Assembly (NCBI GenBank): GCA_028715645.1 | Contig: JAQURK010000001.1 | Coordinates: forward strand, 17,806-81,805 | Direction: 5' to 3' | Source: Candidatus Omnitrophota bacterium | Lineage (GTDB): Bacteria > Omnitrophota > Gorgyraeia > JABMQH01 | DNA: 64,000 nucleotides | Shown: positions 969 to 38,535 of the stretch, in pieces | How positions within the stretch are numbered: position 1 is the first letter of the stretch | Layout of the letters: every line of letters begins with the position of its first letter | Notes under the pieces: model-generated | Seen by the model: the letters and a program-made list of their open reading frames with translations, nothing else | Database searches by the model: none | What the model was told of the DNA's origin: nothing | Position numbers and translations under genes: made by a program

Positions 969-2942
969 TTATCCCTCCTCTTTTAAATTTGTAACCGCGC
1001 TTTTTAACAATCTGCAATAGAGGTCAAAACCCACGGCCTCTATGTAGCCGTGCTGCTCGGAACCAAGGAGGTTTCCGGCGCCCCTCAGCTGAAGGTCCTC
1101 CATGGCTATTTTAAAACCAGAACCCAGTTCTGTAAAATTCTTTATCGCAAGCAGCCGTTTTTCTATATCCTTCGTCAGGATGATATTATTCGGTATTAAA
1201 AAAAAGGCGTAGGCCTTTCGTTTGAATCTTCCTACGCGGCCCCTCAATTGATAAAGGTCGGCAAGTCCAAACATGTCCGCCCTGTTTACGATTATCGTAT
1301 TCGCGTTCGGTATGTCTATACCCGATTCTATGATGGCCGTCGATACCAGAACATCTATCCGGCCGTTTATGAAGCCGGCCATGGCGTTTTCAAGCATTTT
1401 CTCCGACATCTGTCCGTGGGCAATCTCAACGCGGGCCTCAGGCGCCAGGGACTTGATGTGGGCGGCTATTTTTTCTATTCCCAGTATGCGGTTGTGCAGA
1501 AAAAAAACCTGGCCCTTCCTTTCCAGCTCATTTCCTATGGCCTCCTTTATCAGTTTTTCGTCATATTCGCTGACATGCGTCTCGACAGGAAGTCTGTCCT
1601 GAGGAGGCGTGGCAATTATGGAAAGGTCCTTGGCGCCCATGAGAGACATGTATAAGGTCCTGGGTATCGGCGTGGCGGTTAGGGTAAGAACATCCACCAT
1701 CAGGCGCAGCCTTTTTAATTTTTCCTTGTGTCTTACTCCGAACCTCTGTTCCTCGTCGACAATCACGAGCCCCAGGTCCTTGAATTTTATGTCATCCGAA
1801 AGCAGCCTGTGGGTCCCTATCAGTATATCGACGCCGCCGTCCGAAAGGCCTTTTATGATTTCCTGCTGCTCTTTTTCCGTCCTGAACCTGCTAAGCATCC
1901 TTACCGTTACGGGATACCTGGAAAGCCGCAAGCTGAATGTATTATAATGCTGTTCCGCCAGGATCGTGGTCGGCACGAGAACCGCGGCTTGTTTATTATC
2001 CATTACCGCCTTAAACGCCGCCCTGAGGGCGACCTCTGTCTTGCCGTATCCCACATCGCCGCAGAGGAGCCTGTCCATGGGCCTTGAGGATTCCATGTCC
2101 TTTTTTACCTCTATGGTCGAGCGCCTCTGGTCCGGCGTCTCTTCATACGGAAAGGCCTCTTCAAGCTCCCGCTGCCAATCCGTGTCCTTTGAAAAACTAA
2201 AACCTGAAAGTGAGGCCCGTTTTGCCTGCAGCTCCAGAAGCTCGTATGCAAGCGTAAAAACGCCCTTCTTCGCCCTCTCTTTTACCTTCTGCCACAGGTT
2301 TGAGCCCAACTTATAAAGCCGCGGCGGCCTGCCCTCAAAGCCAATATATCTTTGAATAAGGTTGAGTTCGGTTGAAGGGACATACAGGATCTCCTTGTCC
2401 TGATATTCGATAACAAAATGGTCGAGGAAGGCCTTTCCCGTCTTAAGACGCTTTAAACCCCTGTACACGCCTATCCCGTGATCGACGTGGACCACAAGAT
2501 CGCCGGGTGAGATATCGACAAAATTATTTATGGGGATCTCTTCCGTAAATATGAGCGGCGCCCTTATCTTATGCGGCCTCAAGCGCGAGACGGGCAGGAT
2601 GATCGCGATCTGATGCTCCTGGGCATAATTTCCGGTCTGCGGGTCAAAGCCTCTTATCCTCTCGACGATGCTGCCGGAAAATTGTATCCTCACGGGCAGC
2701 TCGAAAGTGACAGGGAACACGTCAATCACTTCGCCCCTGCGGCTAAAGTCGCCTTCTTCGCACACCTGGACGGCATTCGTGTAGCCGAAGTCTATCAGCC
2801 CTTCGACAAACTTCATCACATTCACCGTCTCTTTCACATATATCTTTATACTCTCAAACATAATTGTTTCTCGTGACGGGGCAGCTCGACCGGCGGGCAG
2901 CCTTTCGGCTTGTTTTGCTGCGGCCTGCAATTGATATGTCAT
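969..2942 (-). CDS. mfd: Transcription-repair coupling factor Mfd, short form (about 650 aa)
   Basis: Has a CarD/RID-like segment (DLVVHVDHGIGVY...ILYVPSTELNLIQRY), helicase motif I (GDVGYGKTEVALRAA), motif II (DEEQRFGV) and motif VI (QLRGRVGR). The N-terminal approximately 130 aa (D1a) and the D3 and D7 domains of a 1150-aa Mfd are absent. The upstream spacer is only 200 bp. Confidence 0.75.
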   Translation of the reverse strand: MTYQLQAAAKQAERLPAGRAAPSRETIMFESIKIYVKETVNVMKFVEGLIDFGYTNAVQVCEEGDFSRRGEVIDVFPVTFELPVRIQFSGSIVERIRGFDPQTGNYAQEHQIAIILPVSRLRPHKIRAPLIFTEEIPINNFVDISPGDLVVHVDHGIGVYRGLKRLKTGKAFLDHFVIEYQDKEILYVPSTELNLIQRYIGFEGRPPRLYKLGSNLWQKVKERAKKGVFTLAYELLELQAKRASLSGFSFSKDTDWQRELEEAFPYEETPDQRRSTIEVKKDMESSRPMDRLLCGDVGYGKTEVALRAAFKAVMDNKQAAVLVPTTILAEQHYNTFSLRLSRYPVTVRMLSRFRTEKEQQEIIKGLSDGGVDILIGTHRLLSDDIKFKDLGLVIVDEEQRFGVRHKEKLKRLRLMVDVLTLTATPIPRTLYMSLMGAKDLSIIATPPQDRLPVETHVSEYDEKLIKEAIGNELERKGQVFFLHNRILGIEKIAAHIKSLAPEARVEIAHGQMSEKMLENAMAGFINGRIDVLVSTAIIESGIDIPNANTIIVNRADMFGLADLYQLRGRVGRFKRKAYAFFLIPNNIILTKDIEKRLLAIKNFTELGSGFKIAMEDLQLRGAGNLLGSEQHGYIEAVGFDLYCRLLKSAVTNLKEEG

Positions 2943-3148
2943 GTTATGTCATCCCGAATGTAGTATCTTTTTGGGTTATTCTTCGGGATTCATTCAATTG
3001 CTACGGCCGCAACGCAAAACATTACGCCTCAAGGCAGACCCGCCGGTAGCTGCCCCTTAGCTCACATTGAGAGAAATTTTTACGGTCAGCTAGTAAAGGG
3101 GTCCCCCGAGGGGTGGTGCCGAAGCGGGACGTGAAAATTTCTCCTTCA

Positions 3149-6102: not shown

Positions 6103-7389
6103 CTACTCGCGTACCTGCCCATTACCGTATATCAAATATTTATACGTTGTCAACTCTTCCAATCCTACGGGGCCCCGGGCATGCAACTTTTCTGTCGAGA
6201 TCCCTATTTCCGCGCCCATGCCGAATTGACCTCCGTCGGTAAAACGCGTGGACGCGTTCACGTATACGCAGGCGGAATCCACATTCTTTAAAAAATAATC
6301 GGCATTCTTTTGATTATCCGTAACTATCGCGTCTGAGTGCATGGAGCCATACTTTCTTATATGGGCAACGGCTTCATTCAGGTTTTCCACCACCTTAACG
6401 GACAAGATTAAATCCAAATACTCTGTGCCCCAGTCCTTTTCGGTAGCGGCCTTTATATCCTTTCCGCCGAAGGCAGGGCCGCCTATTGAGGAAATAACCG
6501 AGCGAGTCTTCTCACAGCCCCTGATCTCAACACCGGCATCCCTGAATTTTTTCAGCATGGAAGGCAGGAACCTTGACGCTATTGCCTTATGGACCAAGAG
6601 GGTCTCCATGGCATTACATACTCCGGGCCTCTGGACCTTGGCGTTAAAACATATTGATTCAGCCATGTTTAAATCAGCGTCCTCATCCACATAGGTATGG
6701 CATATCCCCTTATAATGCTTTATAACCGGGATCTTTGACCTTAAAGAAACGAAATTTATCAGCTCTTCTCCGCCCCTTGGCATGACAAGGTCTATATAAT
6801 CTTTTTCGGCAAGCAGGACTTCTATCGCCTTCCTGTCGGTTTCTTCGATCAGGATAATCGCCCTCTCGGGCAAACCGCATGATTTTCCGGCCTTGGATAG
6901 CGCGTTGTATATTGCCGTATTTGAATTTATGGCCTCACTGCCGCCCCTCAAAATAACCGCGTTTCCCGACTTAAGACATAATCCAACGCAGTCGCTTGTA
7001 ACATTCGGCCTTGATTCGTATATGATGAATATAACGCCGATCGGAACCCTGACCTTATCTATCTGGAGGCCATTAGGCCTTTTTACGGAAGATAACTTCT
7101 CGCCTACAGGGTCTTCAAGCCCGGCGATCGTCCTTAATGACCCGGCCATTTCCTTAATCCGCCTCTCATCGAGGCGCAGCCTGTCTGTCATGGCAGGAGA
7201 AAGGCCGTTTTCGCGGGCTGTTTTAAGGTCTTGCGCGTTTGCGGCAAGGATTTTTTTAGCGCCTGCCTCCAGGCCGTCCGCCATCGCCAGAAGACACTCG
7301 TTTTTCTTAGAGGTTTCAAACGCGGCCAATCCCACCGCCGCCTCCTTCGCTCTTGCCGCCAATTGAATAATCTCATCTTTCTTTACCAT
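6103..7389 (-). CDS. proA: Glutamate-5-semialdehyde dehydrogenase (gamma-glutamyl phosphate reductase)
   Basis: 428 aa, aldehyde dehydrogenase fold with typical ProA N- and C-terminal regions (VPIGVIFIIYESRPNVT...). Confidence 0.9.
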   Translation of the reverse strand: MVKKDEIIQLAARAKEAAVGLAAFETSKKNECLLAMADGLEAGAKKILAANAQDLKTARENGLSPAMTDRLRLDERRIKEMAGSLRTIAGLEDPVGEKLSSVKRPNGLQIDKVRVPIGVIFIIYESRPNVTSDCVGLCLKSGNAVILRGGSEAINSNTAIYNALSKAGKSCGLPERAIILIEETDRKAIEVLLAEKDYIDLVMPRGGEELINFVSLRSKIPVIKHYKGICHTYVDEDADLNMAESICFNAKVQRPGVCNAMETLLVHKAIASRFLPSMLKKFRDAGVEIRGCEKTRSVISSIGGPAFGGKDIKAATEKDWGTEYLDLILSVKVVENLNEAVAHIRKYGSMHSDAIVTDNQKNADYFLKNVDSACVYVNASTRFTDGGQFGMGAEIGISTEKLHARGPVGLEELTTYKYLIYGNGQVRE

Positions 7390-7397
7390 ATGATATT

Positions 7398-7426
7398 ATT
7401 ATATCAGCGCTACCTGCCCAAAACAA
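7398..7426 (-). promoter_or_regulatory. Candidate sigma70 promoter for proA, giving a nearly leaderless transcript
   Basis: Minus strand: TTGTTT (-35, 7426-7421), a 17-nt spacer, TATAAT (-10, 7403-7398), then the ATG 9 nt downstream of the -10. Confidence 0.4.
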
Positions 7427-7675
7427 GTATTTATTGCTCGGGGTATTGTTCGCGGCGCTATAATTTTTTCGCAGTGTGCTGCGGTTTACGGCTCGTTCGT
7501 ATGCAGAAATTCCCTCGTAAGAGTAGTATTAGGGCTTTTCTCGGTCAGTTTCTGCACTCACTCGCCGTAATTCCTTGCACACCTATTATGTAAATACCAG
7601 ATGAGGCGATAAAAATTCTCATGCGCCGCTCACAACACCCCTCGCAATATATACCTCTCTCTATGCAACTTGAGA

Positions 7676-7862
7676 GGGACAGCTACCAGGGGGCCTGCCT
7701 TGAGGCGTAAAGATTTTGCGAGCGAGCGTGGGAATTGAATGAAGTCCCGACATTTATACATATTATTACTTGCTTACTTGGTCGGGACGGGAAATCTTCT
7801 ACATATCAATTCCAGCGAGCCGCAAAATTAGCCGAAGGGCAGCCCCCTGGTCAAGCTGTCCC
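7676..7862. ncRNA. Candidate structured RNA element (unclassified); strand not determined
   Basis: A ~23-bp closing stem pairs GGGACAGCUACCAGGGGGCCUGCC (7676-7699) with GGCAGCCCCCUGGUCAAGCUGUCCC (7838-7862); all pairs are Watson-Crick. Inside it sit an 8-bp stem (GGAAUUGA / UCAAUUCC) and an 8-bp apical stem (GUCCCGAC / GUCGGGAC) with a 30-nt AU-rich loop. Confidence 0.35.
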
Positions 7863-7869
7863 GGCACGG

Positions 7870-7914
7870 GTTAATCTACTTTGTTAATCAGTGAGAGGCA
7901 GAGGAAGGTGGTGA
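7870..7914. repeat. Direct repeat copy A (att-like), a duplicate of the MFS gene's 3' end
   Basis: GTTAATCTACTTTGTTAATCAGtGaGAGGCAGAGGAAGGTGGTGA. It is 43/45 identical to 10886-10930, which is the stop-proximal end of the transporter gene. It is read in the same frame as a pseudo C-terminus. Confidence 0.7.
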
Positions 7915-7916
7915 GG

Positions 7917-7951
7917 ATAAAAAAATATGAAGCCACAGATTGTGGCTTCAT
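7917..7951 (-). terminator. Rho-independent terminator of the 896-aa protein gene
   Basis: Minus strand: perfect hairpin ATGAAGCCACA-atc-TGTGGCTTCAT followed by ATTTTTTTAT, directly downstream of the stop at 8011. Confidence 0.7.
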
Positions 7952-8010
7952 ATTATATGACAGGGTGTACCTAAATAGGACGTCTGTTAATACTAATAAC
8001 TCTACAAACT

Positions 8011-10701
8011 CTATTGGCCAACTTTTATCCTTACGCAATGTATGTCAGAAGTGTTGTGGTGAAAATCATCTTCCCGGAGACTCGACCAAATTATACAAAT
8101 TCTATTACCTTGAGGATTGATGGCAATTTTGGGTCCACTCGTAACGCCGCTACCCCCGAATGTATAACCAGTATTAACATACTTATAAACCGGTATAGGT
8201 ACTGAATCAAAAGTCAATCCGCCATCTTCAGAAAAATTAAAGTACATAACAGTGCTCAATAAGTTTATCGTATAGGTCCATCTCGGATCAAAAAAATCCC
8301 CTACATAAGTAACATAGATATTGCCACTATCAGCCGCAACTAAAGAGGACATGCGATAATATGCACGACTGTCACTATATCCAAAGGGATTCATTAGGCT
8401 ATCTATAATTCTGCCATAGTCATCACCTATCGCTAGACAAACGGTTTGCCATTTCCAATGTTCATAGGACTCAACAAAATGCTTTTTACTCCAAATGGTG
8501 TAGATTTCATTATTAGCGCCAATTGCGATATCTGGATCATAGTTATATCCGCCAGAATATTCGTAATATGTATCAACCACTTTTGGTGTTTCAAAGTTAA
8601 GGCCATAATCTTGTGACCTTACCAATCTGATGTCGGTAACATATTCGGGCGGCACGGGCCCCAACACGTCTACACCATATACAAATCTTCCGTCTTTGCT
8701 GCACTCAATGTTGGCCACTGCCACTGCGCTGACTGGCCGTTCAAATGTTAAACCACCATCTATTGATCTTGCACAGTCACCTGAGGCTGACACATATACT
8801 ATATTACCTGATTCTGATACGGCTAAATCTGGATACGTACCATAAGCTAATGCTGCTATTTTATCGCTGAAAGTAATCCCTCCATCAGTAGATTTAATAA
8901 AATACGCTGCATTACTACCACGCCATACAATATAGATGTTGCCACTACCATCTGTGCGAATCTTTGGGAAACTGCCTGTTTCAATAGCCTTCCTTAAAAC
9001 ATTCCATGTAATCCCTCCATCATTTGACTTATCAAAATAAATTTTGCCGTCCCTATTATTTTGCCAAACCGCATAAACTGTGCCTTCAAATATTGCTATA
9101 TCTGGCATTGTTTCAGCGGGATCATTTGTCACTTGAATATTTGGGCTTATATCAATGTTTGGTCTGAGTCGTTGGTAATAAATACGCCCACTCGCGTATC
9201 CGGAATTGCCTGCCGCATCTTTGGTCTCTACAGTAATTGTATTTTCTCCTTCTACAAAATCGCCAACGTAACAACTCCAGGTTGTAGTATCAGGATAACT
9301 TACGGGTCTTACATATAAAGATGGGGCTGTAACTGTAATCGGCGCATTGAGCTCTCTTGCCCCTCCTATAATTTGGCCATCTAAGCTGGTAGAATAATTT
9401 CCGACGGTAACAGTTGGTGGGGTTGTATCCAGGATTATGGTATCGCTAAAGACCTGCGACCAGTTACCGGCCCTGTCAGAGAATTTCACAAATACAGTTT
9501 TTTGGCTATCGCCGGTATATAAACCCCAACTTGCCGCTGTTGAATAAGGTCTGGACGTAGACCAATTTACGCCGTCATTTGAAAATTTCATATCCGCCAG
9601 GCCTGAGCCGCCTTGGTTATCTTGCGCGGCCAAATTTAATATAACTGATACTGAATTTGTGTATTGGGCGTCATTGTTTATTTTTATTGAGCCGGTAGGG
9701 GGCGTTACATCAGAAGATGCTATACTCCAGGTCCCTTTCAGCACATAGCCGCTATAGGCGTTCTGTTTATCGCGTGCAAATAGATACATGTTCTTTTGTC
9801 CTAAAAATGCCGCTTTATATGCAACATTCCACTTCATGGTAAGGGTAGTACCGCTTCTTGAAACGGTTGTTTTTGAGCAATCAAGCTTGCCCCGTGTCAT
9901 CTGGATGATATTGCTTGAACCAGGGGCATAGCCGCCTGTCCAGCCTACACCATCACTTGCGTATAATTTGTTCTCTGGCTGATTGTAGTATACAGCGAAG
10001 CCATTTGGAAAGGTTGCGGTGGTATTTACCAAAAATAGGGCATGGGCTATATCCTGGTAGCCGTTTTGGTCACTGTAGGTAGCGGTGAATTCAACTGCTT
10101 GCTCCGCAATGCTTGAGCCGCTTGAAGGGGTAATTGTGCCGACAGTGGGTGGTTGATTTAACATAATATTCCATGTCCCTTTTAGTATATAATCACTTTT
10201 AGCGCCCTGTTTATCGCGTGCAAATAGATACATGTTCTTTTGTCCTAAAAATGCCGCTTTATATGTAACATTCCACTTTATAGTAAGGGTGGCGCCGCTT
10301 CTAGAAATGGTCGTATTTAAGCAATTAAGCGAGCCTTGTGTATTGCTGATTATGTTGTTAGAACCGGGGGCAAACCCGCCTGTCCATGCTGTTCCATTGT
10401 CACTTCGTAGGTATAATTTGTTCGTTGGCTGATCATAGTATGCAAGGAAGCAGTTTGTATTGCTTGTGTAGGTGGTATTTACAAAAAATAGGGCATGCTG
10501 TATGTCCTGATAGCCGTTTTGGTCTATATAGGTAGTGGTAAATTCAACTGTTGTGTTAGCAATGCTTGAGCTATTAGAAGGCGTGATTGTGCCGACAGTG
10601 GGCGCGTAGTTCAAAGCCGCCGCATAGCAAATACCAGACAATCCCGCGTAAATACTAAAGCTAACAACAGCAAGCAAAATCTTAAATTTTAAGTTTTTCA
10701 T
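8011..10701 (-). CDS. Secreted multidomain protein: signal peptide, two tandem ~150-aa repeats, Ig-like middle region, C-terminal BNR/Asp-box beta-propeller
   Basis: N-terminal signal peptide. Repeats over about aa 33-184 and 185-333 share conserved blocks (PTVGTITPS, YKAAFLGQKNMYLFARDKQ). The C-terminal half has four Asp-box motifs (SNDGGITW, STDGGITF, SIDGGLTF, SEDGGLTF). No sialidase RIP motif was seen. Confidence 0.8.
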   Translation of the reverse strand: MKNLKFKILLAVVSFSIYAGLSGICYAAALNYAPTVGTITPSNSSSIANTTVEFTTTYIDQNGYQDIQHALFFVNTTYTSNTNCFLAYYDQPTNKLYLRSDNGTAWTGGFAPGSNNIISNTQGSLNCLNTTISRSGATLTIKWNVTYKAAFLGQKNMYLFARDKQGAKSDYILKGTWNIMLNQPPTVGTITPSSGSSIAEQAVEFTATYSDQNGYQDIAHALFLVNTTATFPNGFAVYYNQPENKLYASDGVGWTGGYAPGSSNIIQMTRGKLDCSKTTVSRSGTTLTMKWNVAYKAAFLGQKNMYLFARDKQNAYSGYVLKGTWSIASSDVTPPTGSIKINNDAQYTNSVSVILNLAAQDNQGGSGLADMKFSNDGVNWSTSRPYSTAASWGLYTGDSQKTVFVKFSDRAGNWSQVFSDTIILDTTPPTVTVGNYSTSLDGQIIGGARELNAPITVTAPSLYVRPVSYPDTTTWSCYVGDFVEGENTITVETKDAAGNSGYASGRIYYQRLRPNIDISPNIQVTNDPAETMPDIAIFEGTVYAVWQNNRDGKIYFDKSNDGGITWNVLRKAIETGSFPKIRTDGSGNIYIVWRGSNAAYFIKSTDGGITFSDKIAALAYGTYPDLAVSESGNIVYVSASGDCARSIDGGLTFERPVSAVAVANIECSKDGRFVYGVDVLGPVPPEYVTDIRLVRSQDYGLNFETPKVVDTYYEYSGGYNYDPDIAIGANNEIYTIWSKKHFVESYEHWKWQTVCLAIGDDYGRIIDSLMNPFGYSDSRAYYRMSSLVAADSGNIYVTYVGDFFDPRWTYTINLLSTVMYFNFSEDGGLTFDSVPIPVYKYVNTGYTFGGSGVTSGPKIAINPQGNRICIIWSSLREDDFHHNTSDIHCVRIKVGQ

Positions 10702-10803
10702 TGTAGTTCTCCTTGTTTTTATATATCTTTTTAAACTAATTTATTACCAACACAAAAAAAATTAATCTGTACTCTTAAGTCTATCTCTAGCCTTCTGTAA
10801 GAG

Positions 10804-10831
10804 AGTATAGCACATAATTTGTATTTGTCAA
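10804..10831 (-). promoter_or_regulatory. Consensus sigma70 promoter for the 896-aa protein gene
   Basis: Minus strand: TTGACA (10831-10826), a 16-nt spacer, TATACT (10809-10804). AAGGAGAA sits 7 nt before the ATG at 10701. Confidence 0.5.
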
Positions 10832-10885
10832 GTAAATCTTTCTAACTTTTTTAAAGTATAACACCTGTGCGCTATTTACCCACTC

Positions 10886-10930
10886 GTTAATCTACTTTGT
10901 TAATCAGCGGGAGGCAGAGGAAGGTGGTGA
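10886..10930. repeat. Direct repeat copy B (att-like), lying at the 3' end of the MFS transporter CDS
   Basis: GTTAATCTACTTTGTTAATCAGcGgGAGGCAGAGGAAGGTGGTGA. It encodes the last residues ...TTFLCLPLINKVD* of ORF 10887..11900. Confidence 0.7.
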
Positions 10931-22424: not shown

Positions 22425-23096
22425 TTATTCCGATGCGCGGAGCGCATGCCTAATCTTTTTCAAATCCTCCCATACCAGGCGTTTATCGCCCGGATTGCGC
22501 AAAAGATACGCGGGATGGAATGTAGGCATGACCTTTATATCATCCATTTCGTAAAATCTGCCCCTTAAGGCGCTGATAGGCGTTGCGCTGTTAAGCAAAA
22601 ATTGCGACGCAAATTTTCCAAGGCAGCATACGACCTTCGGATGAATGGATTCAATTTGCTCAAGGAGAAAATGCGAACAGGCCTCTATCTCATCGGGAAG
22701 AGGGCACCTGTTACCGGGCGGCCTGCATTTTAAAACATTGGCGATATAGACGTCTTCCCTTCGCATACCTATGGCCTCGATCATCTTTGTCAGGAGTTGC
22801 CCTGCCCTTCCGACAAAAGGTAAACCCTGCAGGTCTTCATCCGCCCCTGGCGCCTCTCCCACAAACATCAATCCCGCATGCGGCGAGCCGGAGCCAAAGA
22901 CCATATGAGTGCGCTTTTTATAAAGCGGACATGCCTTGCATGCCTCCGCCGCCTTTTTTATCCCTATCAATCCCTTTCTATCCTTATGCCGAATGTAGTT
23001 ATCCTGTGAAGAAGTTCTTCGCACAAATATCTCATTGATGCCGGCCAGCTTATCTGTCTCCAGATAGCCCTTTATGGACGCGATTATGCTTCGCAT
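22425..23096 (-). CDS. Uracil-DNA glycosylase, family 4
   Basis: GEAPGADEDLQGLPFVGRAGQLL motif and the HPAYLLRNP C-terminal motif. Confidence 0.85.
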   Translation of the reverse strand: MRSIIASIKGYLETDKLAGINEIFVRRTSSQDNYIRHKDRKGLIGIKKAAEACKACPLYKKRTHMVFGSGSPHAGLMFVGEAPGADEDLQGLPFVGRAGQLLTKMIEAIGMRREDVYIANVLKCRPPGNRCPLPDEIEACSHFLLEQIESIHPKVVCCLGKFASQFLLNSATPISALRGRFYEMDDIKVMPTFHPAYLLRNPGDKRLVWEDLKKIRHALRASE

Positions 23097-24241
23097 ACCA
23101 CAAACCTGGCGATTGCCGCCGCGGGATTTTCTTTTTTTATCTTCCTTATATTTTCTTTCATTTGTTTTAACAGGTTCGCGTCATGAAAGATGTCTTTAAT
23201 GATTTTTACCGCCTCTTGAGCCTCGTTTATCCTGAATGCCGCGCCGTTCTTAATAAGAAGGCGGCAATTCCTGCTTTCCTGCCCCGGTATCGGAGAAATT
23301 ATTATAAGCGGCAGCTCCTTTGCCACCGCCTCTGAAGATATCAGCCCTCCGGCCTTTGTTATAGAGACATCGGAAACGCTCATTAGTTCGTCGATGTAAT
23401 CTATGAAACCAAACGTATTCAAGCGGGTCGTTGGTCTTTGGCCCCTTCGGGAGGCTTCGCTCTCGTTGGTCGTTAGTTTATCGAGTCGTGCGCGCAATGC
23501 GGCGTTGTGGCCGCAGACAATTAATATCTGAAGCTGGAGTCCGCTTTTAATCAGGGCCTTGACAAGGGCCTCAATTGGCCCCACGCCAAAACCCCCGCCT
23601 GTTATAAGAACGGTGAACATATCGGGAGATATATTTAGTTTATCGCACACGGCCTTTTTTTCTTTTTGTTCATAAAATTTTGGATGTATCGGCATACCCA
23701 GCACATGTATGTTTTCGACAGAAACGCCCCACTTTTTTATCAGGTCCTGACGGGTCTCATTAAAACTTACGCAGAAGTGATCTGTCTCCCGTGAAAACCA
23801 GAATGAATGCATCCTGAAATCGGTAACACATGTTATAAGCATTGTCTTAAACCTGTTTTCTTTTTTAAGGCGCGAGATCACCTCTCCTGTCAGGAAATGA
23901 GTTGATATTACGATATCAGGATTATACTCAAGTAAAAGATCCTCAAGCGCCCTTGCGTTGTTCTTATTAACAAGGCGCCTGGCTATCCTGACAAAAGGAA
24001 AGAGCTGTCTGATATCAAGACAATAGTAAAAAAAACCCCAGATCGCGGGCATACGCAGCACTACGAATAGATAGGTCCTCGCATATGATCGCTTAAAGAA
24101 GTTTGTTGTATAATGGAGAGCGTCGATTATCTTTATCTGGGTATCCGGCGGGGATAAGCAATCAAGGGCATTCTTGATGGCAAAGGCGGCGCGCTTATGC
24201 CCTTCCCCCGCTGTTGCATAGACAATTAAGATCTTTTTCAT
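23084..24241 (-). CDS. Glycosyltransferase family 28-like (MGDG/diglucosyl-DAG synthase-like)
   Basis: N-terminal MKKILIVYATAGEGHKRAA motif and a C-terminal GT-B domain. Fits a monogalactosyl/glucosyl-diacylglycerol synthase fold. Confidence 0.6.
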   Translation of the reverse strand: MKKILIVYATAGEGHKRAAFAIKNALDCLSPPDTQIKIIDALHYTTNFFKRSYARTYLFVVLRMPAIWGFFYYCLDIRQLFPFVRIARRLVNKNNARALEDLLLEYNPDIVISTHFLTGEVISRLKKENRFKTMLITCVTDFRMHSFWFSRETDHFCVSFNETRQDLIKKWGVSVENIHVLGMPIHPKFYEQKEKKAVCDKLNISPDMFTVLITGGGFGVGPIEALVKALIKSGLQLQILIVCGHNAALRARLDKLTTNESEASRRGQRPTTRLNTFGFIDYIDELMSVSDVSITKAGGLISSEAVAKELPLIIISPIPGQESRNCRLLIKNGAAFRINEAQEAVKIIKDIFHDANLLKQMKENIRKIKKENPAAAIARFVVCEA

Positions 24242-24263
24242 CCTTATTTATCCTTATGTATCC

Positions 24264-24833
24264 CTATATATCCTTATCTTTCTTTATTATCTCCTCTACC
24301 GCTTCTTTCAGGTCCTTTTTAATAATATCCGGTTTTATAGGCCAGTCCTTTGTCTCATCCTCTGTCTTTGTCATGCCGCTTAAAACCAGGACCGTCCTTA
24401 AGCCTGCCCGGTTTCCCGCCTCGATGTCCGTCCTTTTGTCGCCTATCAGATAGGTTTTGGCAAGATTGACATCAAGGTCTTTTATCGCCGGCATAAGCAG
24501 CCCTGTCTTTGGTTTTCTGCAATCGCAGTTATCAGCCGCTGTATGGACACAGTACCTCACCGTCCATATCCTGCCGCCGGCAAGCCTTATCCGCTCAAGC
24601 ATCTTTTCGGTGATTTCTTCCAATCGTTTATCCGTATATATCCCTTTTCCGACGCCGGCCTGGTTTGAGATTACCGCTATCTTCACCCCTTTATCAGTGA
24701 GGTATTTAATCGCCTCCAGGGCGCCGGATAAAAAATGGAAGTCCTCCCAACGGGTGACATAACCTTCCCTGGTAATCTCGCCGGGATCCCTGTTGATAAC
24801 GCCATCCCTGTCGATGAATATCAGTTTATCCAT
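24264..24833 (-). CDS. gmhB: D-glycero-D-manno-heptose 1,7-bisphosphate phosphatase (HAD-IIIA)
   Basis: LIFIDRDGVIN HAD motif I, ~190 aa, GmhB/HisB-N family. Sits in a heptosyltransferase-containing cluster. Confidence 0.8.
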   Translation of the reverse strand: MDKLIFIDRDGVINRDPGEITREGYVTRWEDFHFLSGALEAIKYLTDKGVKIAVISNQAGVGKGIYTDKRLEEITEKMLERIRLAGGRIWTVRYCVHTAADNCDCRKPKTGLLMPAIKDLDVNLAKTYLIGDKRTDIEAGNRAGLRTVLVLSGMTKTEDETKDWPIKPDIIKKDLKEAVEEIIKKDKDI

Positions 24834-28258: not shown

Positions 28259-29106
28259 TAACCGATACTCTTCGCCATAGCCATTTGTTCCAGCATCGCT
28301 GACACCCTCTTGTCGTAGGTGTGCGATGAGGCCGCGAGGTCTTTTCCGGCCGCGGCCACAGCCCTTCTTTCATTATTATTTTCCAGATAGCGCTTAATCA
28401 TGAGAAATATTTCTTGAGGCGAGCTGTATACCGCCACATTTTTTTTATCCTCAAAAAGACCGTCAAACCCGTTTCCCTCCACATGGTTTGTAAGCAGCAT
28501 TGCCCCGCAGGCCATTACCTCAAATACCCGCATATTTATATCGTTTGCTATGGAATAATTAAACCCTATCTTTGCCTTGCTGTATATCTCTGATATTTGC
28601 GTAAAGGGAGCGTTGCCTATATAGGAACCCGGAAACCTTTCCCTTATCTCCTGGAGAAGCAGCTTTCTCGGCAATCCCCCGTCGTTTCCAATAAAGGCGA
28701 TGTCGATTGTTCTTTCCGTGCCCAAATCGCGGTGCAACTCGGAGTCGCAGGCGTGGGGCAGCCAAGAAACTTTATCTCCGCAGACGGCCTTGAGTTTAAG
28801 GTAACCGTCGTATTGCGCGCAAAAGACATGGTCATATAGTGGCGCCACGCCATTTATGGCCAAAAAGGGCTTTTTTAGATGGACGTCGCTCGCGTAAAAG
28901 AAAGAGGGCTTAAGCCTGCCATGCGGGATATCGTATTTATAATCGCCGTCATCTATCCTTAGATAGCAGTCAAACCGGGGCTCGATGCGGCCCGAATCCT
29001 TTAACCAGAAATGAGTCACGGCGTGGCCGGCCTTTACAAACGCTTTTTTATAATATTCGCCCAGGGTATCTTCCCGCAACTTATCATATATTATCGCGAT
29101 ATTCAT
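28258..29106 (-). CDS. CgeB-family / GT1-like glycosyltransferase
   Basis: C-terminal GT1-like region (FEVMACGAMLLTN) with a CgeB/DUF3880-like N-terminus. Confidence 0.55.
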   Translation of the reverse strand: MNIAIIYDKLREDTLGEYYKKAFVKAGHAVTHFWLKDSGRIEPRFDCYLRIDDGDYKYDIPHGRLKPSFFYASDVHLKKPFLAINGVAPLYDHVFCAQYDGYLKLKAVCGDKVSWLPHACDSELHRDLGTERTIDIAFIGNDGGLPRKLLLQEIRERFPGSYIGNAPFTQISEIYSKAKIGFNYSIANDINMRVFEVMACGAMLLTNHVEGNGFDGLFEDKKNVAVYSSPQEIFLMIKRYLENNNERRAVAAAGKDLAASSHTYDKRVSAMLEQMAMAKSIG

Positions 29107-29135
29107 AAACTTATATATATCCTTATCTATCCCTA

Positions 29136-29495
29136 TTATTCCCTATTATTCCTTATTTCATACCCCTTTTCCGTTTCAATCAAAATTTTCGCGTCTAACC
29201 CAAATCCCCTGACCCATTTTCTCGTTTGTTCTTTTGTTACAATTACCGTTTCCAATCCTTCCAGTATCCGGTGCCATAAAAAATAAAAAAACAGGTACGG
29301 GTTAAAAAAAATTCTTGGGATCGCGTGAATCCTCAAGCCGTCGGGCCTGGTAATGACGCCCAGGACCCTTTTATTTACTGTGCCCTTGATGATAATATCT
29401 ACGGATAAATTGTTTTTTAACAGCGCCGAGGAAAGTTCCTTCGCGCCGCGCCAGCCAACCTCAGAAATGATCAGGGCCTTTTTACATCCAGTCAT
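29136..29495 (-). CDS. Hypothetical protein
   Basis: 119-aa ORF packed between two sugar enzymes on the same strand. No recognised motif. Confidence 0.35.
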   Translation of the reverse strand: MTGCKKALIISEVGWRGAKELSSALLKNNLSVDIIIKGTVNKRVLGVITRPDGLRIHAIPRIFFNPYLFFYFLWHRILEGLETVIVTKEQTRKWVRGFGLDAKILIETEKGYEIRNNRE

Positions 29496-31480: not shown

Positions 31481-32562
31481 TTTATTTTTGCTAAAACTTC
31501 CTCAGGCGTTATTGCCTCAAGCCTGTCTTTTTCTATTATGATATGACCGGCGCCATATGGCCCCCATCGCATCGGCCTGCTTCCGGCATCCTGCCTTCCA
31601 AAAAGCGCGACTACAGGAGTGCCTACCGCGGCGGCGATGTGGACGGGGCCGCTGTCGCTTGATACCAAGAATTTGCAATTTTTAAACAACGCCGCCAGTT
31701 CCCTCAGGGACAGGGCGCCGGTAAAATCAATTACTTTATTCACCATCCCTGAAATGACCTCTTTAGCCGATTGAACCTCATCCGGCCCGCATATCATCAC
31801 TACATTATACCCTTTTTGCGTAAGTAAATCCGCTAGTTTAGAGAAATTGGTTTTCGGCCACTGTTTTTTTGGATTGCTTGTACAGGGATGGACGGCTATC
31901 AGCCGGCAAATGTCGCTGCCGGGCGGGAGCGCCTTTTTTAATTTCTCAATTATAATATGGCCCGCGGTATCCGTCACCGTAAGGACGGGCCGCGCGTTTT
32001 TCGGTTCTATGCCAAGCGATCTAATCAGGTCAAGGTTATACTCTACCTCATGCCTCTCGGCCAGGAATTTCCGGTCGCTAACCCTGTGGGTAAGAAAAAA
32101 TCCCCATTTTCTGTCAAATCCGGCCCTGACAGGGATCCCCGCCAAAAAAACCGCCAGATGAAACTCCTTTTTTGGGTTAGCTATAATCGCCATATCAAAT
32201 TTCTTTTCTTTTAAAATTCTTTTTAACTTGAGGGCCCCGAGTACCGCCCCCTTATGTATCCTTATTTTTCCTTCTTTATCCTTATATTCTTTATACTCTA
32301 TGATTTCTTTTACATAGGGGTTGTCCTCAATCAATTCCCTTACCGCCGGATTTATCATCATACTGATATCCGCCTCAGGCCATTTTTCCTTTAGGGCTGT
32401 TATGACCGGAAGGGTAAGCACGACCTCGCCGATCCGGTCCGTCCTTATAACCAGGATTTTCATTTTATCCTTCTTAGTGAGACGGCCAGGCCGGCTATGA
32501 ACCAGAATACCACCACAAGCTTTGAAAAATAAAAGCTTGATTCGGTAAGGCCGTTTAAACAA
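31477..32562 (-). CDS. GT9 ADP-heptose:LPS heptosyltransferase
   Basis: MKILVIRTDRIGEVVLTLP. The probable true start is the internal Met near 32463, which removes the overlap with the ligase gene. Confidence 0.8.
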   Translation of the reverse strand: MFKRPYRIKLLFFKACGGILVHSRPGRLTKKDKMKILVIRTDRIGEVVLTLPVITALKEKWPEADISMMINPAVRELIEDNPYVKEIIEYKEYKDKEGKIRIHKGAVLGALKLKRILKEKKFDMAIIANPKKEFHLAVFLAGIPVRAGFDRKWGFFLTHRVSDRKFLAERHEVEYNLDLIRSLGIEPKNARPVLTVTDTAGHIIIEKLKKALPPGSDICRLIAVHPCTSNPKKQWPKTNFSKLADLLTQKGYNVVMICGPDEVQSAKEVISGMVNKVIDFTGALSLRELAALFKNCKFLVSSDSGPVHIAAAVGTPVVALFGRQDAGSRPMRWGPYGAGHIIIEKDRLEAITPEEVLAKIK

Positions 32563-33668
32563 AACGCGAAGATGCCGCAGCCCAACCCCAATGCGGCATT
32601 CCTTATATACCCTTCTTTATCCCTATCATTCCCTATTATTCCCTTTATTTCCAAGAAAAACGCCGCTAAAATCCACAGGAATATCCCAAGCCCGGTAAGC
32701 CCCATCTCGCCGGCCATCTGCAGATAATTATTGTGCGCATAACACTGTTCGGCGGTTATCACTGTGACGTCGCGGACCTTGTATTTGGGATAGGCCTTCA
32801 TAAAGGTATTTATTCCTACACCTATTACCGGATGGTCTTTGATCATATGAACCGCCGATCTGTAAAACGCGATCCGGTCCGCGTTGCAAAAAAACTCGAT
32901 AGGCGACTTTGTCGTCTTTCCCCATTCCTTTACGCCGTTTGGTATCAAAAAAGGCATCGCTGCCAGGGACACAGCCAGGGCCAGCATGACCCATTTATCT
33001 TTTTTAACAACCGCCATAAGGGCGATGGCGCCGTAAAAGGCCAGGACCGCGCCTCTCGAGAACGTAAGGACAACACAGACGGTTATCAAAATCGCGGCTG
33101 CCAGAACCAGCCCTTTAAGCAGTTTCTTGAACTCATACAGGGCAAGGGTCCATATTACAGGGACAACAGTGACAAGGTATATGCCGAAATCGTTGCAATG
33201 CTTGTACGCGGCGGTCATGCGTTTCAGGCCTATGTTTATGATCAACGGGTTTGAACGCAGCGCATCCCTTCCGGTAATATACTGGATAACACCGTCTATG
33301 CAAGCGATCGAAGCGCCGATTAGCAAAGCGGCCGTTATCCTTTTCGCCGTCCTTAGGTCATTGACGCCTTCGATCATCATAAAATAGATACCCAGGTATT
33401 TCAAAACCTTTATGAGGCCCTTTAAGCTGGTGCCCGGTTCGATCGAATTAAAGATCGAAAGACACGCGATGATAAAAAAAAGAAATAAGGGCAGGTTAAG
33501 CCGGGTATATCTTAAGGTCAGGTCTTTTTTTAGGCATTTTTTTAAGAGCCAGAAAACAATCGCCATCCCGAGCAGGGTGTTTACCGCGCCGCTTGAAAGC
33601 GGAAGAAAAAACGCCGCGCCGATAATCGAAAGCTCGATAACCCTCTCGCAAATTTTCGCCATCTTCAC
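32460..33668 (-). CDS. O-antigen ligase family membrane protein (WaaL/RfaL-like)
   Basis: About 10-12 TM segments with a large periplasmic loop of Wzy_C type. Adjacent to heptosyltransferases. Confidence 0.65.
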   Translation of the reverse strand: MKMAKICERVIELSIIGAAFFLPLSSGAVNTLLGMAIVFWLLKKCLKKDLTLRYTRLNLPLFLFFIIACLSIFNSIEPGTSLKGLIKVLKYLGIYFMMIEGVNDLRTAKRITAALLIGASIACIDGVIQYITGRDALRSNPLIINIGLKRMTAAYKHCNDFGIYLVTVVPVIWTLALYEFKKLLKGLVLAAAILITVCVVLTFSRGAVLAFYGAIALMAVVKKDKWVMLALAVSLAAMPFLIPNGVKEWGKTTKSPIEFFCNADRIAFYRSAVHMIKDHPVIGVGINTFMKAYPKYKVRDVTVITAEQCYAHNNYLQMAGEMGLTGLGIFLWILAAFFLEIKGIIGNDRDKEGYIRNAALGLGCGIFAFCLNGLTESSFYFSKLVVVFWFIAGLAVSLRRIK

Positions 33669-35111: not shown

Positions 35112-36731
35112 TTACAGGCCCTTCTCTGAAACTAAATCCTTCATATCGTATACCGCTACCTCCCGGGCAAAGATATCATCCTTGTGACTTAGATAATCTG
35201 TTCTTCCCGTGAATTTGACCATCTCATAGAAGGAAGGAAAATAGAAATAAAACGGATCAGGTACCAGTAATCTCGGCCTGGATCTAAAATGAAATTCGTC
35301 CGTATTAAGCCAACTATCGGGACTTACCATCAGATAAACCTTCCCTCTGGAATTGGCCCCGCCCCTGGCCTCTGACCAATTGGCAACGCATATTATTTTA
35401 GCATCATTCAGCTTGGGCATAAGCAGATCGCTTGTCGTAGCCACATAATAAGAGGTGGTCAGGATTTTTTCCGCTTTATTTGCCAGTAAAAAGTCTTCTA
35501 TAACGTTAAAGTGCGACCTTACCTGTCTTACTGCCTTTACTGAGCAGTAGCCTCCTTCTATGATGAGCAAGATGATAAGCGCCCTCTGTAGATTTCGATT
35601 GTTTAACATATCGGCTATAAAAACGCCCATAATTACGCAAAATATGGGATAGGTGGCCAATATAAGCCGAAACTGTCTCTCGTGGCTCGCAAAAAATTGC
35701 CAGTATATCAGCATGCCGGCAGATAATACAAATAAGGCCAGCGCCACAAAACTCTTCTTTTTCAAGACATGTTTCAAAAAGTAAGCTATGCTCGATATGA
35801 TCATAAAAATGGTAAAAAACCAGCCGTTATAAAACCCACTCAAGCAAATCAGATGCCAATGCCCCAGATTTTTATTATTCAATAAACCATTCTGTATCGC
35901 ATCGCCGCTGTCCAAAAAAAAGACTTGGCCAACATAACCTTTATGTATAAAGGTAAACAATGGTGCCGTCTCGTTTCTGCCAAAAATAGACATTATCAAA
36001 AATACAAAAGGCAAAACAAGAAATCCCAGTAAAAAGGTAAATATCCTTAATGGCAATCTCTTGAAAGGAACGAATTTTTCAAAGCAACAAATGACAATTT
36101 CAAACATAATAAGAACAGGGACATAAAATATCGTGACTGTATGCGCTGTAAACGCGAGGCCAAGGATAAGACCTGTCAAAAACATGACTCCCGCGCCGTT
36201 TGTCTTTTTGACGTATGTCCTCAAATACAGAAAGAAGGCCAATACTACAAAAAAGGTCTGGTCTACGTGGCTCATATATGACCGCGAATAATAGACGTGG
36301 AAACCCGAAATCGCCAATAACATCGCCGCGATCAGGCCTGCCCGCTCGCTATAAAATTCTTTACCCATAGCAAAGGCAAGCCATACCGTAAGAACTCCAA
36401 ATAAAGCAATTATCATCATGGGGCCATATTGACTAATGCCAAATAAAAAAAGACCTAAAATTCCAAACAGGATATGATTTGGCTTGCCGGCAAAAGAATC
36501 TGTAACAGGGAGAAGCGCATTAAGGAAGTTTCCGCCGTCTTTAATAAAAAAATTTTCAATGCTTGCTTTCCCAGCGCAGGCCGCCCTATAATAAACGGTC
36601 TCATCAGGAAGGAAAAGGCCCCTTTTTGTTAGATCATAAAATCTCAGGGATGCCGCCATTATCAAAATCAGCAGAAGATAGATCAAGCCCTTTTTCCTAT
36701 TCATTTGTGTGTGCCCCCGCCTGGCCCGCAA
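35112..36731 (-). CDS. GT-C membrane glycosyltransferase (ArnT/PMT-like, GT39/83)
   Basis: 539 aa, about 12 TM segments, hydrophilic C-terminal domain. Paired with an upstream DPM-synthase-like GT2. Confidence 0.6.
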   Translation of the reverse strand: MRARRGHTQMNRKKGLIYLLLILIMAASLRFYDLTKRGLFLPDETVYYRAACAGKASIENFFIKDGGNFLNALLPVTDSFAGKPNHILFGILGLFLFGISQYGPMMIIALFGVLTVWLAFAMGKEFYSERAGLIAAMLLAISGFHVYYSRSYMSHVDQTFFVVLAFFLYLRTYVKKTNGAGVMFLTGLILGLAFTAHTVTIFYVPVLIMFEIVICCFEKFVPFKRLPLRIFTFLLGFLVLPFVFLIMSIFGRNETAPLFTFIHKGYVGQVFFLDSGDAIQNGLLNNKNLGHWHLICLSGFYNGWFFTIFMIISSIAYFLKHVLKKKSFVALALFVLSAGMLIYWQFFASHERQFRLILATYPIFCVIMGVFIADMLNNRNLQRALIILLIIEGGYCSVKAVRQVRSHFNVIEDFLLANKAEKILTTSYYVATTSDLLMPKLNDAKIICVANWSEARGGANSRGKVYLMVSPDSWLNTDEFHFRSRPRLLVPDPFYFYFPSFYEMVKFTGRTDYLSHKDDIFAREVAVYDMKDLVSEKGL

Positions 36732-38535
36732 TTATTTCATAAACATCTGTATCACCAAAGTTTTTAATAAACTTTAAACCTGGCAGCCTTTTCCTCTTAA
36801 TCTTCTCAAATTCATCTGCTATCTCTATATCGTTAGATTCGGCATAACCGCTTGCATGGATGATCACATATTTAACACTCAACCAATTCAACACCCTCGC
36901 TGTCCGTGGGTCGGATAATTTCCAGATGCTTTTCGCAATGCTGTTGCCAAACGTTCCGGGGCTTGTCCCATTTATTATCTTCTTCTCATGTATGGTCTGG
37001 CAGAACTTGTAATACTCATTAGGGCTTTCAGTATCCAAAGGATATTCCGCAATAGCAAAATCGCCCTTTTCCTGCTTTAGCCAATCATACACCCTTGGGT
37101 ACTTTGACATATCTATGATTTTGAACGGGGGGAAATTCAAAAATTCAAATAAAACCAACGCGCACATTAAAGACGCGAACGCTGTCTTGGCCCTATTGTT
37201 TTTGAACCTTTCAAGTATAAATTTTAGCCCAAATCCCGCCAGGACCGAAATCGCGAGCATTACAACTATGCCGAACCTGCAATAGGCCCTGAACATCGGT
37301 AATATCTTATACATAAAAAATGACGGCATATAAATCTTAAAATACGGAAATGTAAAATACGGCGGCTGGGAAAACAGCCATGCGACAAACGCAAGCCACA
37401 CAAAGAAACCAATATAAAAATCATCGTCATTGCTAGGAAGCTGCCGAAGGCGGCTGACGAAGCAATCTCTTTTTTGAGATTGCTTCGCCCCTTCGGGGCT
37501 CGCAATGACGGACATTGTCTTTCGCCTTTTTCTCCAATTTCTACATGCGATAAACGCAAGGATAATCGGCGTCCACCCCAAATACAACGTATGCTCCGTA
37601 TAGCTGACCCCATATAATGGAGAACCGATAAGCCCTTCACTAAATTTTCCAAAAACGGGATGCGTGGTCGCAGGTAATAAATAGCTAAGCGGCTTGGCTG
37701 ATTGCGTAAAAAGATCCTGGAAGGACCTTATATAACCTTTACTCAGCAGTTCCTGTGCACTTACAGGATGTAAATAACCACCTGCTATTCTAATTAATAT
37801 GGGAGATAGAACCAGAAGCATTGCTAAGCAGGATACTATTAAAAAACACACAAAGCGATAAGGGGGTTTTTTAAATATTTTTAATGAATATACTATCTCA
37901 TAAACAACAAACAGCGAAACTGCTACGCTCATAAAATACGTATAATAATAGTCAAAAAAGGCAACGAGTAAAAATGCCACAGCACAAAAAATAACATTTT
38001 TTAAACTCTGCTTTTCTCTAAGCTTAAAAATGGATAATATTAAAAGTGGCATCCACTGAATCTGGGCAAGGCCGAGGTGCTGCCATATCCTAACAAAATG
38101 ATATGGAAGGAATGCATAAATAACACCTGAAATAAATGCTGAGGCCCTATCTTTGGTCATAAACAGAACCAGCCAATACATAAACACCGCCGAGAGAATA
38201 AAAGACAAAAATACCTGCGCATTATATGTAAAAATAGGGTTTGTCAACATGGAAATCCAGCGGGTCAGGAAAAGCCAGATGGGATAAAAATTTGTGCCAT
38301 GTTTAAAATTCACACCAAATGGAAAAGATATATACGAACATTCGCCGAAATCATCCGTCTTATTATGAAAGCAGCGCTTCTGCCACCAGTAATACCATAT
38401 ACTGGCCTGTGGCTCATCGGTGTTTTCAAATCCGGGAATGGCGGAATTAATTTTAAGTACAAGCGGATATGTAAAAACAACTGTTGTCATTACAATAAAC
38501 AATAGAAATACCAGCGTTGTTTTTTTCATTTCCAC
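36697..38535 (-). CDS. Large polytopic membrane protein, GT-C/YfhO-like
   Basis: 612 aa, many TM segments, periplasmic C-terminal domain. Contains a palindromic in-frame segment at 37443-37497. Confidence 0.5.
   Translation of the reverse strand: MEMKKTTLVFLLFIVMTTVVFTYPLVLKINSAIPGFENTDEPQASIWYYWWQKRCFHNKTDDFGECSYISFPFGVNFKHGTNFYPIWLFLTRWISMLTNPIFTYNAQVFLSFILSAVFMYWLVLFMTKDRASAFISGVIYAFLPYHFVRIWQHLGLAQIQWMPLLILSIFKLREKQSLKNVIFCAVAFLLVAFFDYYYTYFMSVAVSLFVVYEIVYSLKIFKKPPYRFVCFLIVSCLAMLLVLSPILIRIAGGYLHPVSAQELLSKGYIRSFQDLFTQSAKPLSYLLPATTHPVFGKFSEGLIGSPLYGVSYTEHTLYLGWTPIILAFIACRNWRKRRKTMSVIASPEGAKQSQKRDCFVSRLRQLPSNDDDFYIGFFVWLAFVAWLFSQPPYFTFPYFKIYMPSFFMYKILPMFRAYCRFGIVVMLAISVLAGFGLKFILERFKNNRAKTAFASLMCALVLFEFLNFPPFKIIDMSKYPRVYDWLKQEKGDFAIAEYPLDTESPNEYYKFCQTIHEKKIINGTSPGTFGNSIAKSIWKLSDPRTARVLNWLSVKYVIIHASGYAESNDIEIADEFEKIKRKRLPGLKFIKNFGDTDVYEIIAGQAGAHTNE
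37443..37497. repeat. Long palindrome inside a CDS
   Basis: CGAAGCAATCTC-TTTTTT-GAGATTGCTTCG (perfect 12-bp stem) extended by GCCGAAGG / CCTTCGGGGC. It encodes a hydrophilic loop (PEGAKQSQKRDCFVSRLRQ). Confidence 0.4.

Follow-up and report, generated by a model that had tools for sequence, protein, structure and literature searches.

A hairpin element of Omnitrophota that probably belongs to a new family of dispersed, structured intergenic repeats

Main finding

In this study, a 187-nt element at positions 7676-7862 of a 64,000-nt stretch of Omnitrophota DNA (the window) was found to be, on the balance of the evidence, a copy of a new dispersed, non-coding and structured intergenic repeat family in Omnitrophota, similar in kind to REPIN, ERIC, Correia and bcr1 repeats. 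The family consists of long hairpins with an internal conserved core and a strand bias; it is dispersed and variably present, and near-identical copies occur at unrelated loci. Its structure is kept by selection through compensating mutations. The family is without previous description and shares no sequence with any described family, and no published description of Omnitrophota repeats or non-coding RNAs was found in the literature.

Fold of the element

When the whole window was folded in sliding segments of 200 nt, the three top outliers were the element at 7676-7862, the segment 2881-3080 and the segment 7441-7640. Folded as RNA, the plus strand of 7676-7862 gave -94.8 kcal/mol, compared with a shuffle mean of -54.0 ± 4.5 kcal/mol (z = -9.05), and none of 200 dinucleotide shuffles was as good. 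The strongly nested 187-nt hairpin that had been proposed in a preliminary description of this DNA is thereby borne out. The minus strand gave -86.7 kcal/mol (z = -8.3). Folded as DNA, the two strands gave -49.3 and -47.3 kcal/mol, and are equivalent under these parameters. The features of the element are as follows.

7676-7862, plus strand: copy 1, of subtype 1; plus is the better-folding strand, called sense here, and is antisense to all neighbouring genes (from folds, covariance model R1, and alignments A2 and A6)
7676-7694, plus strand: 5' strand of the basal rod, P1 (9 bp) and P2 (10 bp), pairing with 7842-7862, with a conserved 2-nt bulge at 7852-7853
7676-7684 with 7854-7862: first segment of the closing helix, 9 bp
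7852-7853: bulge CA in the closing helix, 2 nt, 3' strand
7685-7694 with 7842-7851: second segment of the closing helix, 10 bp
7695: unpaired C of the closing helix
7696-7701 with 7836-7841: third segment of the closing helix, 6 bp including one U-G pair
7696-7706, plus strand: 5' strand of the conserved core, UGCCUU-GA-GGC, pairing with 7831-7841 around a tandem G•A / A•G internal loop
7831-7841, plus strand: 3' strand of the conserved core, GCC-GA-AGGGCA
7731-7743, plus strand: 5' strand of helix P7, GGAAUUGA, and the invariant junction AUGAA; the partner UCAAUUCC (7806-7813) is preceded by a conserved CAUA
7744-7788, plus strand: apical hairpin with an 8-bp stem and a 29-nt AU-rich loop, the variable part of the family

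The closing helix had been described as 23 bp of uninterrupted Watson-Crick pairing, which is incorrect; the 2-nt bulge and the unpaired C break it into successive segments of 9, 10 and 6 bp. The 8-bp helix formed by 7731-7738 with 7806-7813 is as claimed. The apical 8-bp helix GUCCCGAC/GUCGGGAC (7744-7751 with 7781-7788) is also present, with a loop of 29 nt instead of the 30 nt given.

The rod had been likened to 6S RNA with its central bubble. 6S RNA has a large central bubble that mimics an open promoter, occurs in single or low copy, and is conserved in related genomes. The element shares with it a length of about 185 nt and the overall rod shape, and differs in bubble, model match, copy number and synteny: no 6S model matched even at E ≤ 10, no bubble is present (besides the tandem G•A, the largest internal loops are 5×1 and 3×1), two copies lie within 5 kb, and the orthologous spacers of the relatives L003, L006, L007 and L138 are without the element. 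There is hardly any chance that it is a 6S RNA.

Other known RNAs were not detected either. At Rfam gathering thresholds the whole window gave zero matches, and at E ≤ 10 over 7300-8100 nothing relevant was returned, only chance-level matches elsewhere in that stretch. The tmRNA and RNase P models suggested for checking gave zero matches, and no tRNA or tmRNA genes were found in the window by ARAGORN. For a retron msr/msd or an IS-derived omega RNA, also suggested, there was no partner gene in the 64-kb window and zero Rfam match. An IS110 bridge RNA was rejected, as no IS110 recombinase was found in the ORFs of the window or in those flanking the other members.

Family members

A second copy was found by blastn in the same window, 72% identical to copy 1 over 189 nt and with a fold of -99 kcal/mol (z = -9.6).

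2878-3056, minus strand: copy 2, of subtype 2, located between argS and mfd; it shares the strand of the genes and ends 16 nt before the likely mfd ATG (about 2861)

Metagenomes were scanned with a pattern anchored on the most conserved feature, so that the core is fixed by the search. Chance matches in GC-rich DNA accounted for 113 of the 120 metagenome matches listed, and blastn and folding identified at least seven members among the matches listed (L024, L044, L060, L064, L079, L081 and L120). Six of the seven came from one metagenome, Ga0315284, and may stem from several organisms; L024 is from the same sample as L006, a contig that carries a ProA relative. With the covariance model R1, scores of 174-192 bits were obtained on one strand of the nine members and of 24-47 bits on the opposite strand; copy 1 scored 177.4 bits on the plus strand (nothing comparable on the minus strand) and copy 2 scored 178 bits. 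No further full members were found with R1 in the approximately 1 Mb of DNA searched, and the copy number demonstrated in a single genome is only two per 64 kb.

Weak but significant R1 matches revealed divergent relatives at L006:8885-9036 (minus), L136:10018-10211 (plus), L136:8871-9042 (minus) and L137:14243-14376 (minus), all in the argS-mfd spacer of relatives that are syntenic around ProA. The relative in L137 retains GCCUUGAGGC...GCCGAAAGGC exactly, and the plus-strand relative in L136 retains CCUUGAGCG...GCGAAAGG. Since these two were found independently of the pattern, the core is conserved beyond the sequences that the pattern selected.

Two subtypes were distinguished, subtype 1 with copy 1, L024, L060, L079, L081 and L120, and subtype 2 with copy 2, L044 and L064. 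Both are present in the genome of the window and in Ga0315284, so that both lineages predate the divergence of these organisms. They persist across organisms at 76-90% identity and are about as conserved as the host proteins. Such conservation is explained no less well by a selected function, for example that of an RNA gene, than by selfish DNA.

In the GTDB species genomes, a strict two-block pattern gave only one chance match, in a Treponema coding sequence; the family is therefore undetectable by this pattern in the representatives. Pattern matches in viral contigs were chance matches only.

Conserved structure, covariation and strand bias

Members of the family are imperfect palindromes of 160-190 nt that fold to a rod about 80 bp long. 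A consensus of 56 pairs, drawn by hand and covering P1-P7 and the base of the apical stem, was tested on alignment A6 of the nine members. Standard pairs filled 93.5% of the consensus cells, and double-sided compensatory changes were observed at 16 of the 56 pairs, in 29 cells that are not independent events as the members are related; none of 500 column shuffles reached these values. When the 3' partners were slid by 1-3 columns as a control, 0-3 such pairs and 23-43% pairing were obtained. RNAalifold independently found 13 covarying pairs, and the region of the basal helix holds 9 of the 16 pairs. Template switching at the DNA level can also give palindromes compensatory changes, although it would erase, not keep, the conserved asymmetric irregularities.

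Among these irregularities is a tandem G•A/A•G loop, with CCUU/AAGG on one side and GGC/GCC on the other; it is invariant in the nine members, in the seven metagenomic ones partly by construction because the search pattern fixes the core. A 2-nt bulge on the 3' strand, a 5×1 loop (GUAWA/A) and a three-way junction (AAUUGA-AUGAA ... CAUA-UCAAUUG) are conserved as well. Subtype 1 has a second tandem G•A, in place of which subtype 2 has G-C pairs. Across the family, the length of the apical stem ranges between 8 and about 20 bp, and a second small hairpin often follows it; in members other than copy 1, the tip is a GC-rich extended stem with this second hairpin. A K-turn reading of the G•A core was ruled out by inspection, because the G•A pairs have no 3-nt bulge next to them. 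The members do not share a conserved reading frame, including one from the AUG of the junction, and a small ORF starting at the invariant AUGAA was ruled out by shifting frames and early stops.

The sense strand was the more stable one in all nine members, by 1.0-14.5 kcal/mol, and it has 16 G-U cells in 6 columns versus 5 A-C cells. In the divergent relative of L006, the strands differ by 22 kcal/mol.

Strong covariation, an apical stem of variable length, and invariant internal loops and junction are the typical pattern of a functional RNA, and the copies might be independently transcribed, trans-acting, multi-copy small RNAs with the G•A core and the junction as protein-binding sites and the tip as a tolerated expansion segment. 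The uniform strand preference agrees with this, as do the 22-kcal/mol advantage of one strand in the L006 relative, the G-U pairs and tandem G•A that exist on the sense strand only, the appearance of the preference with RNA and not with DNA parameters, and the conservation of both subtypes across organisms. Against it, no conserved promoter or terminator flanking the element was found, a single helix holds the 5' and 3' ends together without conserved single-stranded tails, and no Rfam family matches. Together with the distribution of the copies described below, this leaves small RNA genes as the main rival reading, possible but unlikely.

Genomic context in the window

A Candidatus Omnitrophica MAG encodes a protein with 100% identity to ProA of the window (6103-7389, minus). 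The minus strand carries all genes of the window, which are closely spaced and follow each other in the minus-strand order tpiA, secG, an MFS gene, an inserted gene for an 896-aa Ig-like protein, proA, nadD, rsfS, argS, mfd and a surA-like gene; before tpiA lie further genes of glycolysis, replication and repair, together with a large cluster for glycan synthesis. The window has only three long spacers, 2862-3148, 7390-8010 and 10702-10886. Domains of transposases, integrases, recombinases, reverse transcriptases, TnpB or Cas proteins were found in none of the ORFs of the 64-kb window.

Copy 1 lies, as first described, about 250 nt upstream of the proA promoter and start (7389) and downstream of the terminator (7924-7954) of the large inserted gene. 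The predicted proA promoter, TTGTTT-17-TATAAT (7421-7426 and 7398-7403, minus), is homologous to TTGTCA-17-TACAAT of the relatives; the conserved -35 and -10 boxes are right beside the start codon. A cis-regulatory role as a leader, attenuator or riboswitch, in which copy 1 would serve proA or copy 2 would serve mfd, would account for the end of copy 2 on the gene strand 16 nt before the mfd start. It does not account for copy 1, which is on the opposite strand and upstream of the proA promoter, nor for relatives that lack the element before the same genes, nor for other members whose flanking genes are unrelated, and is very improbable. The earlier conclusion that the element is not a proA leader holds in view of strand, promoter position and absence in relatives.

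The element abuts, as claimed, one copy of a direct repeat (copy A, 7865-7914), at a distance of 2 nt. The 50-nt repeat (7865-7914 and 10881-10930, 92% identical) brackets a 3-kb low-GC insert (7915-10880), which carries the gene for the 896-aa secreted Ig-like protein (8011-10701, minus) with its own intrinsic terminator. The final 44 nt of the MFS gene and a further 6 nt make up copy B of the direct repeat. The interval between MFS and proA is, in relatives, empty, occupied by small unknown ORFs or, in L007, marked by an oligopeptide ABC operon that replaces the MFS gene; since its content differs among relatives, this interval is a variable islet. Before the 3-kb insertion, copy 1 would have sat 8 nt past the MFS stop.

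The proximity to the cassette raised the possibility of a DNA-level site, a cruciform or single-strand hairpin for a recombinase, perhaps attC-like, that had inserted the adjoining 3-kb cassette. Besides the 2-nt distance to copy A of the direct repeat, the variable nature of the MFS-proA and argS-mfd spacers in relatives is consistent with such a site, and so are the hairpins formed by both strands as DNA and the flank shared by the L060 and L079 copies on the 5' side only, as expected for recombination at the element. On the other hand, no integrase or recombinase was found in the window, the direct repeat of the cassette is the duplicated 3' end of the MFS gene and not the element, and copy 2 and most other members adjoin no cassette. 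A recombination site is improbable for these reasons. The tie to a cassette boundary looks incidental, as in L120 the element directly follows the orthologous MFS gene, with the contig ending at the element.

attC sites are 57-141 nt long, with R''/L''-L'/R' boxes and GTTRRRY at the 3' boundary, and are accompanied by an integron integrase and a cassette array. The attC reading was rejected: no integrase is present in the window, the neighbours are housekeeping genes without a cassette array, the 160-190 nt of the members exceed the attC size, and no GTTRRRY-type boundary motif is common to the flanks of the nine members. The preliminary suggestion of an element-associated RNA or a recombination-site structure nevertheless pointed in the right direction, because the element is a copy of a dispersed repeat family.

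Two further hairpins occur in the same spacers as copies 1 and 2.

7427-7654, minus strand: an unrelated 228-nt imperfect hairpin that fills the same spacer as copy 1 and ends exactly at the predicted proA -35 box
3068-3143, minus strand: a separate small palindrome, GAGAAAUUUU...AAAAUUUCUC (the AAATTTTTACGG palindrome), beside copy 2 and not unusually stable alone (z = 0.35)

The 228-nt hairpin gave -95.7 kcal/mol on the minus strand (z = -9.5) versus -82.4 kcal/mol on the plus strand (z = -6.5), and had zero relatives in the DNA compared and zero Rfam match. Its reading as a distant family member is unsupported, as it has no R1 match and does not share the architecture.

Presence and absence among relatives

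The comparison loci were those of ProA relatives of 77-80% identity, with proteins 76-80% identical and gene order kept. The MFS-proA gap was without the element in L138 (15 nt), L006 (43 nt), L003 (60 nt) and L136 (151 nt), as was the region upstream of proA, there following other genes, in L135 (174 nt) and L007 (135 nt). For argS-mfd, gaps without the element measured 18 nt (L003) and 30 nt (L007). In the window, L006, L136 and L137, this spacer is enlarged and strongly structured, with elements that differ in subtype and orientation; it contains a 77-nt hairpin in L138 and is 233 nt long in the P0004 contig.

L120 has the element after tpiA, secG and the MFS gene, oriented relative to them as copy 1 is, and the two copies, sharing site and orientation, could be orthologous. 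The MFS protein of L120 is 71% identical to that of the window; L003 and L006 (76-80%) are closer yet lack the element. This indicates either ancient presence followed by loss or repeated insertion at a permissive site.

The L060 and L120 copies are 94% identical overall and 98% in the rod, and their flanks and neighbours differ (Fic versus MFS). The L064 copy is nested inside the palindrome GAGAAAUUUU...AAAAUUUCUC, whose intact form adjoins copy 2 in the window. In L060, a solo fragment of the 3' arm lies 35 nt downstream of the full copy. L060 and L079 have at least 90 nt of 5' flank in common and no common 3' flank. Several contigs end at or near the element. Genes neighbouring the members are unrelated and include those for an FAD oxidase, a BNR protein, Fic, TrpB, two types of MFS protein and a nucleotidyltransferase. 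The absence from close relatives with kept gene order, the near-identical copies at unrelated loci, the nested copy and the truncated arm are repeat-like and speak against the small-RNA reading.

Relative to the upstream gene, 7 of 10 copies are antisense and 3 are sense. The seven antisense copies begin 8-130 nt past the stop codon, six of them within 8-66 nt and that of L006 at about 130 nt; such convergence to the upstream gene is also what free-standing RNA genes can show.

The family shares with MITEs the multiple dispersed copies, the presence/absence among relatives and the lack of coding capacity. No signal of a target-site duplication above the permuted null was obtained for the nine members (offsets up to 17 nt, lengths 2-9 nt). 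The ends are inverted repeats (P1/P2, 19 bp) with a copy-specific, covarying sequence, for example GGGACAGC, GCGGGUAGC, GCGGCCAGC and UUGGGCGGC, and the most conserved blocks of the family are internal. Because the terminal sequences covary instead of being conserved, there seems to be no classic transposase-binding inverted repeat. No reverse transcriptase, TnpB/IscB or IS110 recombinase was found in the ORFs flanking members. The missing duplication, the covarying ends, the absence of mobility genes from the 64-kb window and the low copy number demonstrated count against a mobile repeat.

Comparison with known repeat families

REPINs are doublets of REP sequences that form hairpins and are mobilised by RAYT Y1 transposases in Pseudomonas and enterobacteria. 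Like REPINs, the Omnitrophota repeats are extragenic, dispersed and non-coding, with a long imperfect hairpin of variable tip as the replicating unit. They also resemble REPINs in lacking a target-site duplication, in a probable strand-specific recognition of the hairpin, and in long persistence with presence/absence differences. They differ in arms of about 80 nt with several internal loops, in place of 20-25-nt REP units or short REP palindromes, in having a tandem G•A loop, and not a GTAG-flanked stem, as the core, and in the low copy number demonstrated. No RAYT gene was found within the 64-kb window.

Other families of this kind, and the background on REP and BIME sequences, have been described (PMC3184786). 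bcr1 of the Bacillus cereus group is about 155 bp long, flanked by 5-bp direct repeats, and known to be transcribed (PMC3184786). [quoted passage not shown] ERIC (127 bp) and Correia/NEMIS (about 104-157 bp) are MITE-like imperfect palindromes that, like the Omnitrophota copies, are intergenic and often located just 3' of genes (PMC3184786). Their terminal inverted repeats are conserved and TA duplications are present, with an IHF site in Correia as well, whereas the Omnitrophota family has covarying termini, no duplication, a longer rod and an internal conserved part. ERIC and Correia are co-transcribed, and their long RNA hairpins affect mRNA processing or stability; a block to 3' exonucleases or attraction of RNase III is documented for ERIC, Correia and REP (PMC3184786). 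For the Omnitrophota copies, support for co-transcription of the ERIC, Correia or bcr1 type is positional only, from the seven of ten copies located 8-130 nt past a stop codon and from copy 2 inside the argS-mfd unit.

Proposed behaviour of the family

Under the repeat-family explanation, copies are gained and lost in the few tolerated spacers of compact genomes, usually right after a stop codon, as presence/absence and the near-identical copies at unrelated loci show. They may spread or be exchanged among permissive spacers by a mechanism that leaves no duplication. The strand-specific irregularities would serve as a recognition surface for a copying or binding protein, on one strand as RNA or single-stranded DNA.

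Copies inside transcription units would probably be transcribed passively, to give a double-stranded RNA hairpin of about 80 bp. Since argS and mfd are separated by 18-30 nt in relatives, copy 2 appears to be transcribed as part of the argS-mfd unit and would consequently form such a rod. By analogy with known repeats, this rod could block 3' exonucleases or attract RNase III between the neighbouring genes. Copy 1, between the terminator at 7924-7954 and the proA promoter, is for that reason likely untranscribed on the gene strand and is probably a silent passenger.

A bolder version, which we hold to be rather unlikely, is that the family represents a "giant REPIN", a self-propagating RNA or single-stranded DNA hairpin whose G•A core would be recognised by an enzyme, or a multi-copy, protein-binding class of Omnitrophota non-coding RNA, the sense structure being selected regardless of gene direction.

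The Omnitrophota, which are uncultivated and for the most part ultra-small, have compact genomes. The family shows that structured hairpin modules, gained and lost between close relatives, occupy the few long spacers of these genomes, and it is a ready-made marker for genome plasticity and strain typing. Covariation, strand bias and the G•A core also make it a well-defined starting point in the search for a new protein that recognises hairpins or for a new class of RNA; should it be no more than a passive repeat, it would matter chiefly for annotation. The family may explain the contig breaks at or near copies, and it explains spurious N-terminal extensions such as that of the mfd ORF in the window. 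This ORF (969-2942) encodes a short homologue, about 630 aa from the likely start at about 2861, that begins at the UvrB-interaction domain; the UvrB_inter domain begins at residue 32 of the long ORF, and the proteins of relatives begin with MFESIKI, 27 codons downstream. The 27 extra N-terminal codons are an artefact of an ORF that reads through the 3' arm of copy 2. A profile of the 3'-arm translation, aimed at spurious ORFs over other copies, returned only the ORF of L044 itself.

Other repeats in the window and in related spacers

Related Omnitrophota spacers are mosaics of other short repeat modules, including GCAGGCCTTTTGCTGCGCT-type units, GTCATTCCCGCGnAAGCGGGAATCC and the AAATTTTTACGG palindrome. 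These were seen in the flanks of the elements of L060, L079, L044, L120 and L081, and at L006:8756-9200 and L136:8726-9248. Such mosaic spacers look BIME-like.

A REP-like double palindrome with units of the type GTCATTGC...GCAATGAC is present at 37420-37510, inside and apparently in frame with a 612-aa ORF (36697-38535, minus) that has no Pfam match. The argS-mfd spacer of L006 contains a related unit (L006:8795-8836).

Arrays of 4-5 units with a 10-nt period (ATAAGGRATA / ATAGGGATA in the minus reading) occur at 22952-22992, 24226-24303, 29095-29162, 32250-32290 and 32595-32652, at gene junctions of the glycan-synthesis cluster. The three that were read directly (24226-24303, 29095-29162 and 32595-32652) are immediately upstream of start codons, and from their sequence the arrays look like reiterated Shine-Dalgarno-like or protein-binding sites.
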